DNA of 64,000 bases from a virus. The stretch's first letter is position 1, and each line of letters opens with the position of its first letter. The stretch lies in UHGV virus genome UHGV-1384413. One strand, 5' to 3'. Shown here in pieces: positions 14,572-55,577 of this stretch. The notes under the pieces were generated by a model. That model was not told the DNA's origin and made no database searches. It worked only from the letters and a program-made list of their open reading frames with translations. The position numbers and the translations under genes were made by a program.

Positions 14572-14906
14572 GTTTGTGGAGAAATATAGTTAACTACGTG
14601 TGCGGTAATCCAAATCCTGAAGAGAAGGATGTTGTGATTCACGATTTTACTAAAAGATCTCGTGAAAAAGACCTCCTGCTAACAAAGGTGATCGATAAAG
14701 ACCCTATAGGGGACTGGGCAGGGTTTGCGTTTACATCTGACAAATACACCTTTAACAAAGGTGACTACCTTGTTGTGGATTTTAACGAAGACATCGAGGG
14801 TGCTGAACCTTACTATCAGACCCTTATCGTTGCAGAGTGTGTTGAGCTCTCTGCAAACATGCATAGTTTGATTCTTTTTGAGCTTGACTCTGAAGACCTT
14901 GAGTAG
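14568..14906 (+). CDS. hypothetical protein (112 aa)
   Basis: ORF with 4-nt overlap to helicase gene. Confidence 0.5.
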   Translation: MSLWRNIVNYVCGNPNPEEKDVVIHDFTKRSREKDLLLTKVIDKDPIGDWAGFAFTSDKYTFNKGDYLVVDFNEDIEGAEPYYQTLIVAECVELSANMHSLILFELDSEDLE

Positions 14907-14966
14907 TAAGATGTGAGTCTAAAGGGGAGGAGTTCCTCCCCACAAAAACTAAGGAAGCACTAAACG

Positions 14967-15269
14967 ATGAAACGTTATAAACCATACACTTTTGAAATCG
15001 ATTTCGAACTTGACGATATGCTTACTGTGGAGGCTCAGGCAGTTGTCCAGTTGCCAGACCCGGAGTGCCGTGATTCTGATGTTGATTATTACGGATTTAG
15101 ACAAATTACCGATGTGCATGTTTACCACAACGGTGAAGAGGTGGACTTCCACCAACTGCCAAACGATATGCGCCACTCGATTTACAAACGGGCAGCACGT
15201 GAACTAGAGTCCTATCTGGATGCAGCAACAACAGCGGCTGCATTTGCTGAAGAGACAGGAGGTTTCTAA
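14967..15269 (+). CDS. hypothetical protein (100 aa)
   Basis: ORF with AAGGAAG RBS. Confidence 0.5.
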   Translation: MKRYKPYTFEIDFELDDMLTVEAQAVVQLPDPECRDSDVDYYGFRQITDVHVYHNGEEVDFHQLPNDMRHSIYKRAARELESYLDAATTAAAFAEETGGF

Positions 15270-15676: not shown

Positions 15677-16159
15677 ATGTCAGATTTTATGTGGAAGGTA
15701 GGTTATGCCTCTCCTGAAATGTGTGAGGCTTGCTTTGTGAAAATAGGCCGCGAGGATATTGACAAAGTGATCCTTAAGTTTCGTGATGTGTCTGTAATCG
15801 GCAACCGAGTTCTTAAGCACTTAAAGAATCTGAAGCTCACCAAGAAGAAGTTCTTCGGACTTTTCGAAGAGAAAGTTGATGCTTGGACCCATTGCATTCA
15901 GGAAGCTAAATCTCACTACAGTGCTATCGTTACTCCGGAACGGGTAGCCAAGATGGAAGGATTCATCAACAGCACGGAGTTTGAGTGCCTAAAGGCTGCC
16001 CTTGATAGCTATCCAAAGTGCCTCAAACACCTTGACAAGTATGTAGAAAAGGATGGTGAAATGTATCTCACCCTAGACGCATACTATGAGATGCAAGAAA
16101 TTTTAAATTTAGATTTGACATTGGTATCTACCGAGTATACAATAGGTATCCGGGTTTAA
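15677..16159 (+). CDS. hypothetical protein (160 aa)
   Basis: ORF with AAGGAGAG RBS; followed by terminator. Confidence 0.5.
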   Translation: MSDFMWKVGYASPEMCEACFVKIGREDIDKVILKFRDVSVIGNRVLKHLKNLKLTKKKFFGLFEEKVDAWTHCIQEAKSHYSAIVTPERVAKMEGFINSTEFECLKAALDSYPKCLKHLDKYVEKDGEMYLTLDAYYEMQEILNLDLTLVSTEYTIGIRV

Positions 16160-16165
16160 CACTAG

Positions 16166-16192
16166 GCCCTGCCCGAAAGGGTGGGGCTTTTT
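16166..16192 (+). terminator. intrinsic terminator (copy 1 of duplicated hairpin)
   Basis: GCCCTGCCC-gaaa-GGGTGGGGC hairpin plus TTTTT; identical hairpin recurs near 26325. Confidence 0.65.
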
Positions 16193-16210
16193 GCATTAGG
16201 AGACAGCAAA

Positions 16211-16975
16211 TTGAAATTTATCTACAAAGAACACTACCACAAAGGTGTTGTGTGGAGTCTATTTGACGGGTCTGGTGGTGCAGTTATTGACTGGGCAAAA
16301 GCTGGGTACCTGTGCCTGTGCTTTAATGCAGAAGGTGCTGACCACGGTAGTTATGCAGAGGTGATAACCGATCATCCTAACATTCACTATGTGGATTATT
16401 GGATTGATCCATGGTTCCCTCAAGAAACTTTTTGCATGTATCCAGCTCCAGACTTTATTCTTGCATTTCCTCCGTGCACGCATTTAGCAGTATCCGGAGC
16501 TGCACACTTTAAGAAAAAGCTGGCTAAGGATCCTCTGATCCAAATTAATGCTGTGAAAGATGCTCGGGTTGCAGAAGAGTTGGGAGAGATTTACGATTGC
16601 CCGTGGCATGTAGAGAACCCTGTAGGAGTTATGTCAACACTGTGGCGAAAACCTGATTACCGTTTTCATCCTTCGGATTATGGCGGGTATTTACCAGAGG
16701 ATGATGTAAACCCATGGTTTCCTGAATTTATAGCTCCACGTGATGCCTACCCAAAAATAACTTGCGGTTGGATAGGTAATGGATTTATAATCCCCGCCAC
16801 AAAACCTGTCCCGCAAATAGTTGATGCGGTTAGCGGTTATTCCATGCAACACGCTAAGCTAGGTGGAAAGAGTGCAAGGACGAAGATGATTCGAAGCCTT
16901 ACACCACGTGGCTGGGCAAGAGCTGTATTCTTAGCAAACGAGCCTGCAGTAAGGAGAAGAATTAATGGGCAGTAA
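16211..16975 (+). CDS. C5-cytosine methyltransferase-like protein
   Basis: Motifs in canonical order: I LFDGSGG (FxGxGG), IV FPPCTHLAVSG (PC catalytic Cys), VI HVENPVG (ENV); no in-frame ATG before motif I, so TTG start with AGGAG RBS chosen; track GTG start lies inside the terminator hairpin. Confidence 0.5.
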   Translation: MKFIYKEHYHKGVVWSLFDGSGGAVIDWAKAGYLCLCFNAEGADHGSYAEVITDHPNIHYVDYWIDPWFPQETFCMYPAPDFILAFPPCTHLAVSGAAHFKKKLAKDPLIQINAVKDARVAEELGEIYDCPWHVENPVGVMSTLWRKPDYRFHPSDYGGYLPEDDVNPWFPEFIAPRDAYPKITCGWIGNGFIIPATKPVPQIVDAVSGYSMQHAKLGGKSARTKMIRSLTPRGWARAVFLANEPAVRRRINGQ

Positions 16976-19043
16976 ATTCATGGCATCTGCATACAACCGT
17001 TTCGGTGAGCCAAACCCGAAAGCAACTAAGTATAAAAGTGGGGGAAGTGTGAAACGAGACTATCGTGATGAAAAAGAAGTTGAAACTGTAGAGACTGTTT
17101 TAGAAAATACTAAAATTGTCCCTGTTCCACAACAAAATATTGGACTGATGGCTGCACAATATTTTGGTGTACGATCATCGCTATCTCAAGAGGATGGTGT
17201 AACTGTTACTGCCACCTACTTCCCGTATTATGACCGCTACGGTAATCTATCCGGCTTTAAAAAGCGGGACTGGACAATCCCTAAAGAGCAAAGGGGCCAT
17301 TTCTCGGTTGTTGGCATAGTAAAGGCCAACTCCCAAATGTTTGGTCAAAAGCTGTGTGCATCCTCCAACAACCGTAAGCAGATTAACGTTTGTGAGGGAG
17401 AAGGTGATGTTATTGCAGCATGGCAGGCTGCATATCAGGTGCAAGTAAAAGGAATTCTCACCAATGCTAAAGCCCCAGCGAAGGTGAAGCAGTGGGCTAA
17501 AGAGGTCCAGGATGGGATCGATGCAGTTATCAACGGCGGCGATCTTGCAGGAAAACCCTGCCTACCTTTTGTTGGAATTAACTGCGGGTGTGCAAACGCA
17601 GTAGACACTTTTGCGAACAATGAGAAATTTATCCGTAGCTACGGAACAGTGGTCCTTGCAATGGACAACGATGCAGCTAACGAGGTAGAGAAGCAAAAAC
17701 ACGTTATCAAAGGTGTTGAAGCCACACATAATATCGCAGCATTTTTGATGGCTGATAACGTTTACCACGTGGAATACCCAGGTGAGGTAAACGACCCTGA
17801 TGGTGTAAAAGATATTCGTGACATGCTGAAGGCTAAAAAGCTGGAAGATATTGTCAACATGTTCCGTCACCCAGTCAAATATGTGCCTGATGCTGTATCT
17901 GATTTAGAAGACTTCTCCATTGAATCTCTTCGTAAGAAGACTTCCAATGGCGTGGATATTAGTGCAGAGTTCCCTAAACTGCAGAAGATGCTGAAAGGAC
18001 TCCACAAAGGCACCTTGATGATGCTGACAGGCCCGTCTGGCGGTGGTAAAACAACTGTAGCCAAGAAGCTGGAACATTGCATTGCAAGATACTTGATGGA
18101 TCCAACATGCCCTAAAGCTGATGATTATGAAGAGGATGATCGCCTGTGCCTGATTCACCTTGAAGAGGATCCTGAGGAAGCAATCAACTCTCTGTACGCT
18201 AACCAGCTGGGGTTTGATGTTAAAGAGTTTGTTGAAGACCCCAGTCAGTTCCTGACCGATCAGGAGCACGCTGAGATTCATCAATCTTGGGCCAAGGCCG
18301 GAAAAATCAAAGTGTTCAAGCATTTCGGCTCCATCCCTGTAGATGAGCTGATCACTAAGCTTAAACAAATGGTGTGCCTGTATCACTGCCGTTACATTGT
18401 GCTGGATCACTTGTCTATGGTGATTTCAGGGCTTAATGTTAAGGATGAGCGTAAAGAGCTTGACATGGCTATGACTCAACTAGCCGCGTTCTGTAAGCAG
18501 TTTAATGTGTTTATCTTGGTGATTGCTCACCTGAAGCGCACAGAGATTGTACCTCCGAAGGATAAGGATGGAAATCCGTTACCTTTCTGGTACCCTGTAC
18601 GAAAAGAGAACCTTCGTGGTAGTGCCGGATTGGAGCAACTTAGCTGGGTGGTTGTCGGGGTAGAGGCAGAGGAGATGGTGGATCGTTCCCGTGGACGTGT
18701 CCGACTGGTAGGTCTTAAAAACCGCCCAGCAAAAACCTTAGGTATTGCAGACACTCTAGTTATGGATCCCCACACAGGCAAGTTCCATGATGCCAGCAAC
18801 TGGTACTGGGACAAAGAAATGCAGATGTTTACAGACGGGGAAGGTGGGGAGGTTGTTTGGAGACCTCAGGCTATGTTTGAGGATCAGGAGCATGCAGTTG
18901 TAGAAACACCTGTAGGCAAGGTTGTGGCTGATAAGGTTATAACCCCTGCTGTTAACCCTGTTGACACACAGGAAGATCTTCAGTATGATGATCCGTCCTC
19001 TAACCACGTTCCTGGTTTTGAAGACGACGAAACACCTTTTTAA
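16965..19043 (+). CDS. primase-helicase (Toprim primase plus DnaB-like helicase)
   Basis: 692 aa; N-terminal acidic Toprim-like motifs (CEGEGDV, LAMDNDAANE); Walker A LTGPSGGGKTT in C-terminal half. Confidence 0.75.
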   Translation: MGSKFMASAYNRFGEPNPKATKYKSGGSVKRDYRDEKEVETVETVLENTKIVPVPQQNIGLMAAQYFGVRSSLSQEDGVTVTATYFPYYDRYGNLSGFKKRDWTIPKEQRGHFSVVGIVKANSQMFGQKLCASSNNRKQINVCEGEGDVIAAWQAAYQVQVKGILTNAKAPAKVKQWAKEVQDGIDAVINGGDLAGKPCLPFVGINCGCANAVDTFANNEKFIRSYGTVVLAMDNDAANEVEKQKHVIKGVEATHNIAAFLMADNVYHVEYPGEVNDPDGVKDIRDMLKAKKLEDIVNMFRHPVKYVPDAVSDLEDFSIESLRKKTSNGVDISAEFPKLQKMLKGLHKGTLMMLTGPSGGGKTTVAKKLEHCIARYLMDPTCPKADDYEEDDRLCLIHLEEDPEEAINSLYANQLGFDVKEFVEDPSQFLTDQEHAEIHQSWAKAGKIKVFKHFGSIPVDELITKLKQMVCLYHCRYIVLDHLSMVISGLNVKDERKELDMAMTQLAAFCKQFNVFILVIAHLKRTEIVPPKDKDGNPLPFWYPVRKENLRGSAGLEQLSWVVVGVEAEEMVDRSRGRVRLVGLKNRPAKTLGIADTLVMDPHTGKFHDASNWYWDKEMQMFTDGEGGEVVWRPQAMFEDQEHAVVETPVGKVVADKVITPAVNPVDTQEDLQYDDPSSNHVPGFEDDETPF

Positions 19044-54762: not shown

Positions 54763-55047
54763 CTACCAGGTCACTGTCAAGTAGGCAACTGTGTTATTTT
54801 TCTCCGGGGAGATGCCAACAACATCCACCTGCAGACCTCCTGCCCTCAAATCCCCAACGATGTGTGGGAAGTAGTCTGAGAGGTGTGATGGAAGATTTAT
54901 CGAAAATCCGCATCCCAGAAAGCCTGCTAACGCCTTATTTTGTATCTCCCCTACAATCGCATCATAAATGGAGTTAAGCTCGTCAGGGAGAGTTACAGGA
55001 CGTTTTAGCGCTAACTGGTGCAACTTGTCCTTAGCACTCATTTTCAT
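54763..55047 (-). CDS. hypothetical protein
   Basis: Start at internal ATG (M24 of track ORF), giving ATGA overlap with the Dam stop; GGAGG RBS. Confidence 0.45.
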   Translation of the reverse strand: MKMSAKDKLHQLALKRPVTLPDELNSIYDAIVGEIQNKALAGFLGCGFSINLPSHLSDYFPHIVGDLRAGGLQVDVVGISPEKNNTVAYLTVTW

Positions 55048-55577
55048 TTCAAGTCTGCCTCCGGAGGTGCCAACCACATAAATGGTGGTAGGTCTAAACG
55101 GTTCTTCTTGTCCCACACAAAATATGCATATGCTTGCCCGTCAGTTCTGCCATTCGATTGGAATGATGGACGCTTAGATATTGTGATCACAGTGGTAGGG
55201 GCATTATCAAGCCACCATTCAAATCTGGCCTTGCTTTCCAGAAAATTAAGACGCAAAAGCATAATAACTACGTCGGCATCTTTCAACGCCTTGTCCACAA
55301 ACTCACGAGCCAGGCTGTACGGCGGGTTGGTGATAATACAGTCAACATGGTTGTATTCTGTATTCAGATAGTCAACACCTTCTTGGATTTCTCCCCATGC
55401 AGATCCTAACGGCATACGGGAGTAGAACACACCTGAGGCGCTATTCCTGCAAGGCTCCAAATAGGTCCAATCTTCTGGGAACGGAATGAGGTCATACAAC
55501 CCTTCTGCACACCACTCTGGTGTCACATATTCATCATAGGCGTTACGTTGTTCGTCAGGTTTTCTAGCACAAGTCAT
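55044..55577 (-). CDS. DNA N6-adenine methyltransferase, small phage Dam type
   Basis: 177 aa; DCIITNPPY (motif IV NPPY); size fits small phage Dam-type enzymes. Confidence 0.6.
   Translation of the reverse strand: MTCARKPDEQRNAYDEYVTPEWCAEGLYDLIPFPEDWTYLEPCRNSASGVFYSRMPLGSAWGEIQEGVDYLNTEYNHVDCIITNPPYSLAREFVDKALKDADVVIMLLRLNFLESKARFEWWLDNAPTTVITISKRPSFQSNGRTDGQAYAYFVWDKKNRLDLPPFMWLAPPEADLK

Follow-up and report, generated by a model that had tools for sequence, protein, structure and literature searches.

A predicted minimal Dcm-like DNA cytosine-C5 methyltransferase in the replication module of a Vequintavirus

Introduction

A short gene resembling those for DNA cytosine-C5 methyltransferases lies at 16211..16975 of UHGV virus genome UHGV-1384413, a 64,000-nucleotide stretch of viral DNA that is referred to here, at its full length, as the window; coordinates are those of the window, and features are on the plus (+) strand unless stated otherwise. 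Annotations of the gene already exist in rV5, FV3 and BASEL vequintaviruses, under names that include 'DNA methyltransferase' (rV5 gp226) and 'Dcm-like C5 cytosine methyltransferase' (bas52_0074), and in S127 BCL3 as 'DNA cytosine methyltransferase'; the rV5, Bas52 and S127 BCL3 products are 97–99% identical to the window protein, and the gene itself is essentially the same. Its family also has a characterised member, and with the gene annotated and the family characterised its discovery value is small. What interest remains attaches to the site that the Vequintavirus-type enzyme targets and to the way in which some 230–250 residues achieve sequence specificity.

The characterised member is the product of the 711-bp dcm gene of phage K42, a strain of KarlJaspers/Bas06 (Drexlerviridae), which is the trigger of retron Ec86 (10.1101/2023.08.16.553469, a preprint cited elsewhere as 'DNA methylation activates retron...'). 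All four of the four escaper phages in that work had lesions in or just upstream of dcm, and expression of Dcm was toxic solely in retron-carrying cells. Liquid chromatography coupled to mass spectrometry (LC-MS) showed high 5-methylcytosine (5mC) in the multicopy single-stranded DNA (msDNA) of Ec86 with K42 Dcm and not with a C82A/E128A/K175A/K176A mutant, and defence was lost when the CCTGG site in the msDNA was altered; the quadruple mutant was the only one assayed (10.1101/2023.08.16.553469).

Two further groups of enzymes serve for comparison. E. coli Dcm/M.EcoRII and M.HhaI have 327–472 aa, a large target-recognition domain, the motifs PCQ, ENV and QxRxR, and a clear GN motif X, whereas the window protein has 254 aa, PPCT and ENP, no recognisable QxRxR or GN, and no PF00145 match. 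The closest solved structures are those of the eukaryotic DNMT3A/DNMT3B catalytic domain, which shares 12–17% sequence identity with the window protein, is about 30 aa longer, and forms a dimer or tetramer on CpG.

Family membership and predicted structure

We consider it highly probable that the window gene encodes a minimal orphan S-adenosylmethionine (SAM)-dependent DNA cytosine-C5 methyltransferase of the phage 'Dcm-like' family (PHROG 757), probably protecting CCWGG-type sites. The window protein matches PHROG 757 'DNA methyltransferase' at E 6.5e-87 over residues 2–252, and this profile search bears out the C5-methyltransferase-like identity claimed in the original prediction, which had been made from the sequence alone. 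There are 4183 homologs at E<=1e-3 in a large protein collection, nearly all of 220–260 aa (family range 219–262 aa), and the 254 aa of the window protein agree with the short length of about 255 aa originally predicted. By tblastn the gene is present in 1506 phage records, the carriers being Vequintavirinae, RB49-type T-even relatives, Drexlerviridae, Klebsiella weberviruses, and others. Given the PHROG score, the number of homologs and the 1506 records, the motif match is, at the level of sequence comparison, far beyond chance. To our knowledge, the PHROG 757-type family is among the shortest C5-methyltransferases known.

An AlphaFold2 model computed from the family alignment (mean predicted local distance difference test score, pLDDT, 88.3; predicted template modelling score, pTM, 0.88) has a seven-strand class I methyltransferase core and a long terminal helix at residues 233–251. 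In a Foldseek search against PDB the top matches are DNMT3A/B chains, with probability 1.0 and a template modelling (TM) score of about 0.5, and the top 50 include a single entry other than DNMT3A/B, a putative DNA modification methyltransferase of prophage CP-933R. The three-dimensional fold is predicted to be that of a C5-methyltransferase, and the claim to a methyltransferase fold, on which the original prediction depended, stands on a confident AlphaFold2 model with DNMT3A/B matches.

Sequence-level comparisons reach the N-terminal half. With hhalign, residues 12–95 align to motifs I–IV of DNMT3A at E 5.9e-5, placing C89 on the catalytic Cys of SPCN (the DNMT3A and M.HhaI comparison sequences are 100% identical to 5yx2_A and 10mh_A in the PDB). 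The family hidden Markov model (HMM) aligns PPC...ENP to PCQ...ENV of E. coli Dcm within one domain, and hhalign against E. coli Dcm aligns motif IV alone (E 0.17). PF00145 is matched by 22 of the 34 family members at E<=1 (best 1.3e-6), and three members exceed its 22-bit cut-off (24.7–28.5 bits); all of these matches cover profile positions 4–94 only, the stretch of motifs I–IV. The family profile searched against PDB sequences gives only weak DNMT3B and M.HaeIII matches (E 0.3–0.9, motifs I–IV), and phmmer searches of PDB sequences with the window protein and with its C-terminal 80 aa gave no usable match. Forced global or low-MAC (maximum accuracy) hhalign runs to DNMT3A misaligned everything past motif IV, leaving motifs VIII, IX and X unmapped. 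Three distant phage members (Sarge gp54, EKq1 and ST15-VIM1phi2.1) were considered as bridges to PF00145 and have no Pfam match.

Conserved motifs

Residues of the window protein are numbered from the TTG start at 16211, and conservation is given over a family alignment of 34 diverse members. Motif I is LFDGSGG (residues 17–23, 16259..16279), the predicted SAM-binding loop after strand beta-1, and aligns to SLFDG of DNMT3A/B. Motif IV is FPPCT (residues 86–90, 16466..16480), in which P87, P88 and C89 are invariant and Cys89 is the predicted catalytic nucleophile; it aligns to SPCN of DNMT3A and to FPCQ of both M.HhaI and E. coli Dcm. Motif VI is the invariant ENP (residues 135–137, 16613..16621); its Glu135 is the predicted proton donor to N3 of the target cytosine. 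The three motifs follow one another with canonical spacing and in canonical order, the order having been noticed from the letters of the sequence. Positions that are invariant or nearly so comprise G20-S21-G22, N39, D44-H45-G46, P87-P88-C89, E135-N136-P137, R177-D178, Y180, K182, T184, W187, G218-G219, and R228-S229-L230...R233.

The C-terminal half lacks a reliable residue-level alignment to canonical enzymes. A motif VIII-like segment, PKITCGWIGN (residues 181–190, 16751..16780), is located on strand beta-7 and includes the invariant K182. It is followed by a variable loop (residues 191–220, 16781..16870), the sole candidate target-recognition region, which is of the 'YSxQH' subtype with a clade-specific insertion of 3–4 aa, and then by a conserved segment, RSLTPRGWARAVF (residues 228–240, 16892..16930), that leads into the last helix. 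The candidates for motif VIII and motif X are PK(K/I)TC.W.GN and GGKS or TPRG, respectively. By eye, RSLTPRGWARAV resembles canonical motif IX (RKLHPRECARV in M.HhaI), with no residue-level assignment obtained, and no 'GN' follows this segment.

The departures from canonical motifs are a T in place of the Q of PCQ and a P in place of the V of ENV, and DNMT3 likewise departs from PCQ, with PCN. KarlJaspers bas06_0055 (711 bp), which has the same gene length and residue numbers as K42 Dcm, shares 54% identity with the window protein across 235 aa (E 7e-87). FDGSG, PPCT, ENP, PK.TC.W.GN and IRSLTPRGFARAVF are common to the K42/KarlJaspers protein and the window protein, and C82, E128, K175 and K176 of bas06_0055 align with C89, E135, K182 and I183 of the window protein, so that three of the four residues mutated in the inactive K42 Dcm are kept and the fourth is an isoleucine. 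PPCT is the family norm and is compatible with activity, the family having an ortholog with PPCT for which DNA C5-methylation has been demonstrated. The original prediction had held that the altered catalytic motif left the substrate open; that view has been overtaken by the PCN of DNMT3 and by the 54%-identical ortholog that makes 5mC in DNA.

Proposed function

The methyltransferase would be translated from TTG 16211 within the replication module, ahead of and overlapping the primase/helicase gene. Its FDGSGG loop would bind SAM, Cys89 of the PPC loop would attack C6 of a flipped-out cytosine, and Glu135 of ENP would protonate the cytosine N3; transfer of the SAM methyl group to C5 and beta-elimination would then free 5-methylcytosine. 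Its role would be to methylate phage DNA as it replicates, with CCWGG-type sites the most likely targets, and so to shield that DNA from EcoRII-like restriction where the host has no Dcm or too little of it; as a side effect, the activity could be sensed by retron Eco1/Ec86. The fold, motifs, start codon, homology and conservation are established for the window gene; its activity and target site we infer, with 5mC formation and CCTGG dependence coming from the 54%-identical ortholog only.

Several observations weigh against this assignment or its CCWGG component. The window protein does not match PF00145 even at E<=10 and thus stays under the 22-bit gathering threshold, and an NCBIfam scan of the protein gave no relevant match. 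Canonical motifs VIII (QxRxR) and X (GN) are not identifiable in it by sequence. The recognition region is about 25 aa long, and there is no separate target-recognition domain between motifs VIII and IX, where some 25–30 residues (191–220) lie between strand beta-7 and the C-terminal helices. The K42 host is dcm+, yet its msDNA is poorly methylated without the phage enzyme (10.1101/2023.08.16.553469); even the tested enzyme may therefore act at another site or position than host Dcm, or on another form of substrate. Because the loop subtype, the insertion, I183 and PPCTH differ from K42/Bas06, CCWGG specificity is not safely transferable to the window enzyme. Finally, no cytosine-methylation data were found in the literature for any Vequintavirus, and the nanopore calls for Bas51 are of adenine only.

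Target site and alternative functions

The loop at residues ~191–220 splits the family into a 'YSxQ(H/Y)' type, with 25 of the 34 members including the window protein, and an 'NPGW' type, with eight of the 34 including K42/Bas06. The 3–4-aa loop insertion, the I or L at residue 183 (K in all 31 other members examined), and PPCTH for PPCTD are peculiar to the Vequintavirus clade. The K42/Bas06 enzyme thus has the NPGW loop subtype where the window protein has YSxQH with its insertion, a second lysine (K176) where the window protein has isoleucine, PPCTD rather than PPCTH, and an N-terminus 8 aa shorter; it is encoded by a siphovirus in which the gene is not beside primase/helicase.

CCWGG occurs at 135 sites in the window with an observed/expected ratio of 0.93, and is not avoided, which agrees with a protective methylation of such sites; GATC (0.96) is not avoided either. 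CTAG (0.57) and GTAC (0.63) fall short of expectation, and the window lacks ten 6-bp palindromes altogether (e.g. TGGCCA, GGCGCC and CGATCG). Methylated adenines in GTAC were among those quantified in the Bas51 nanopore study. Vequintavirinae are described as exceptionally susceptible to restriction-modification (RM) systems, which points to site-specific methylation rather than bulk DNA hypermodification. A CCWGG-type target site is a reasonable guess for the window enzyme.

The alternative that fares best keeps the same DNA 5mC chemistry and changes the target, such that the different recognition loop would direct the enzyme to a non-CCWGG site or to hairpin or single-stranded DNA. The two loop subtypes argue for it, as do the insertion and the K183 to I/L replacement of the Vequintavirus clade; in addition, BASEL saw no simple link of these methyltransferase genes to restriction phenotypes, and host Dcm did not take the place of the phage enzyme on msDNA. 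On the other side, the window protein is 54% identical overall to the K42/Bas06 enzyme with all other conserved segments in common, the window has many CCWGG sites and shows no avoidance of them, and none of the data indicate an alternative site. We regard a changed target as possible and a good deal less likely than CCWGG-type protection. A more specific form of it, to which we give still less weight, makes the Vequintavirus enzyme something other than host Dcm in miniature. With some 25 residues available for recognition, it may recognise its site as a dimer in the manner of DNMT3 and, on account of its loop subtype, clade-specific insertion and K183I, may have a target unlike that of the K42 enzyme, be it hairpin DNA, the outer C of CCWGG or a different sequence.

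A CmoX-like activity, in which carboxy-SAM made by E. coli CmoA is used to produce 5-carboxymethylcytosine as a DNA cytosine C5-carboxymethyltransferase would, is very improbable. CmoX (PDB 8yf3) has SPPC, and an Arg350 that replaces the motif-X Asn and binds the carboxyl group of carboxy-SAM (Cx-SAM), whereas the window motif is FPPC, and the residue before PPC is F or W across the family. For the position equivalent to R350 there are two basic candidates, K220 and R233, neither of them kept in distant members. CmoX usually adjoins phage CmoA (the Cx-SAM synthase) and the ligase CmoY, whereas a tblastn search with E. coli CmoA found no homolog in the 64-kb window (best E 1.2), and the ortholog's product is 5mC. 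That a basic residue near the cofactor pocket lets the Vequintavirus enzyme accept carboxy-SAM is a more remote idea than a change of target.

Two further readings are scarcely credible. A DNMT2-type RNA (tRNA) cytosine-C5 methyltransferase would combine DNA-methyltransferase motifs with an RNA substrate, but DNMT2 ranked below a dozen DNA enzymes, the ortholog methylates DNA, the gene is in a DNA replication module, and tRNA genes are absent from the window. A catalytically dead or purely regulatory methyltransferase-fold protein would fit the missing Pfam match and the atypical motifs VIII and X, but more than 30 diverse members keep the SAM loop, PPC and ENP with little or no change, protein identity among vequintaviruses (97–99%) is higher than nucleotide identity (93–98%), and the ortholog is active and its catalytic-residue mutant inactive.

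Translation start

The open frame of the methyltransferase extends from 16166, next to an in-frame TAG at 16163–16165, to a TAA at 16973–16975; the predicted coding sequence (CDS) at 16211..16975 runs from a TTG to this TAA and encodes the short Dcm-like enzyme. There is no ATG codon between 16166 and motif I, as originally observed, and the in-frame start candidates before motif I are GTG 16181, TTG 16211 and GTG 16250. The first of these, the start of the listed open reading frame (ORF), had been placed within the upstream terminator hairpin, and it does lie in the 3' arm of an intrinsic-terminator-like hairpin (16164..16193) with an 11-bp GC-rich stem and a GAAA loop (the hairpin proper at 16164–16189) followed by a T-run. 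The hairpin, shaped like an intrinsic terminator, would end the upstream gene, whose stop codon is at 16157–16159. rV5 and Bas52 have it unchanged, and it is retained in a 78%-identical relative (P0005, locus L010), in which one G.T pair is changed to G-C. An AGGAG ribosome-binding site (RBS) at 16198..16202 is 8 nt before TTG 16211 and is invariant in rV5 and Bas52, and the region of hairpin, RBS and start is nearly identical across the window, rV5 and Bas52, with 99% mean column identity.

Comparison with relatives supports the TTG with its AGGAG site that was put forward in the original prediction. A 765-nt CDS of the same length as that of the window is annotated at the homologous position in rV5 and Bas52, and the first codon of the Bas52 CDS is the one aligned with the window TTG. 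An 80%-identical metagenomic relative (P0002, locus L008) has a GTG start at the homologous codon, six nt after AGGAGG, and an in-frame TAA among the codons just preceding it, which makes an earlier start impossible there. In L010 there is an ATG start eight codons further in, 3' of the hairpin. Because the start sits downstream of the hairpin in every case compared, TTG 16211 is the most plausible start of the window gene, and the non-ATG start is real; a non-ATG start is already the published annotation.

A sigma70-like promoter (TTGACA-17 nt-TACAAT, 11 of 12 consensus matches) is predicted at 16115..16143, in the 3' end of the upstream ORF, and corresponds to the element annotated P231 in rV5, a consensus match only. 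It is about 20 nt 5' of the terminator hairpin, and its transcript would reach the terminator within the first ~45 nt. This order could mean either that the promoter is merely a prediction or that a leaky or attenuating arrangement precedes the methyltransferase and primase genes.

A second methyltransferase

A small Dam-type N6-adenine methyltransferase gene at 55044..55577 on the minus strand encodes 177 aa with NPPY at residues 84–87 and has weak Pfam matches to Dam and EcoRI_methylase. Its D69, D79 and T83 coincide with the residues hit by the escape mutations D69G, D79G and T83P in the 'N6 adenine methyltransferase' of Bas51, a GATC-methylating enzyme that triggers retrons Asa1 and Squ1; the 441-aa methyltransferase of Bas52/rV5 has C, G and E at the matching positions. 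The agreement at D69, D79 and T83 identifies the predicted product of 55044..55577 as a GATC Dam, an ortholog of the characterised Bas51 enzyme. The window phage would thus carry, as foreseen, two types of DNA methyltransferase, the C5 enzyme and the GATC Dam, which together are the methylation equipment of a therapeutically used phage group. In relatives, each of the two types is known to set off retrons: Dcm triggers Eco1/Ec86, and Dam triggers Asa1 and Squ1.

rV5 and Bas52 have in addition a 441-aa putative N6-adenine methyltransferase (rV5 gp230, bas52_0070; L001:3416-4748) about 1.3 kb upstream of the Dcm-like gene. It is cleanly missing from the window, at 14906..14967, so that vequintaviruses that are otherwise collinear differ in their methyltransferase content. 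In the Klebsiella phages EKq1 (L013:1282-1350) and ST15-VIM1phi2.1 (L014:1-298) the distant homolog adjoins a second gene annotated 'DNA methyltransferase', which suggests that paired methyltransferase genes recur around PHROG 757 family members.

Genome context

The region of about 4 kb around the methyltransferase gene is 98.7% identical to Escherichia phage S127 BCL3 and 93–98% identical to FV3, rV5 and about 110 further vequintaviruses (megablast), and by this nucleotide similarity the window is assigned to Vequintavirus. The gene is located in the replication module, with a helicase gene and four small ORFs as 5' neighbours and a primase/helicase gene, then a DNA polymerase gene, on the 3' side. 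The ATG of the predicted primase/helicase gene (16965..19043) overlaps the final 11 nt of the methyltransferase gene, and because of this overlap the two could be translationally coupled.

The gene order differs in the 78%-identical relative (L010:1-2764, on a 137.6-kb contig), where two small ORFs lie between the methyltransferase and primase/helicase genes. These have Pfam matches to DUF723 and T5orf172/MUG113 and are possible homing-endonuclease genes. Upstream of the methyltransferase gene in L010 is a gene for a PIF1-type helicase with intein and LAGLIDADG Pfam matches. We also note that 16 GenBank 'Campylobacter phage' records (MG065690 and others; C. jejuni is the host in 15 of the 16) match the region, which is that of an E. 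coli Vequintavirus, with at least 80% nucleotide identity (megablast), and one of these names, 'Campylobacter phage' A135, is attached to a sequence encoding a 97%-identical methyltransferase protein; the matching records are probably mislabelled or contaminant sequences.

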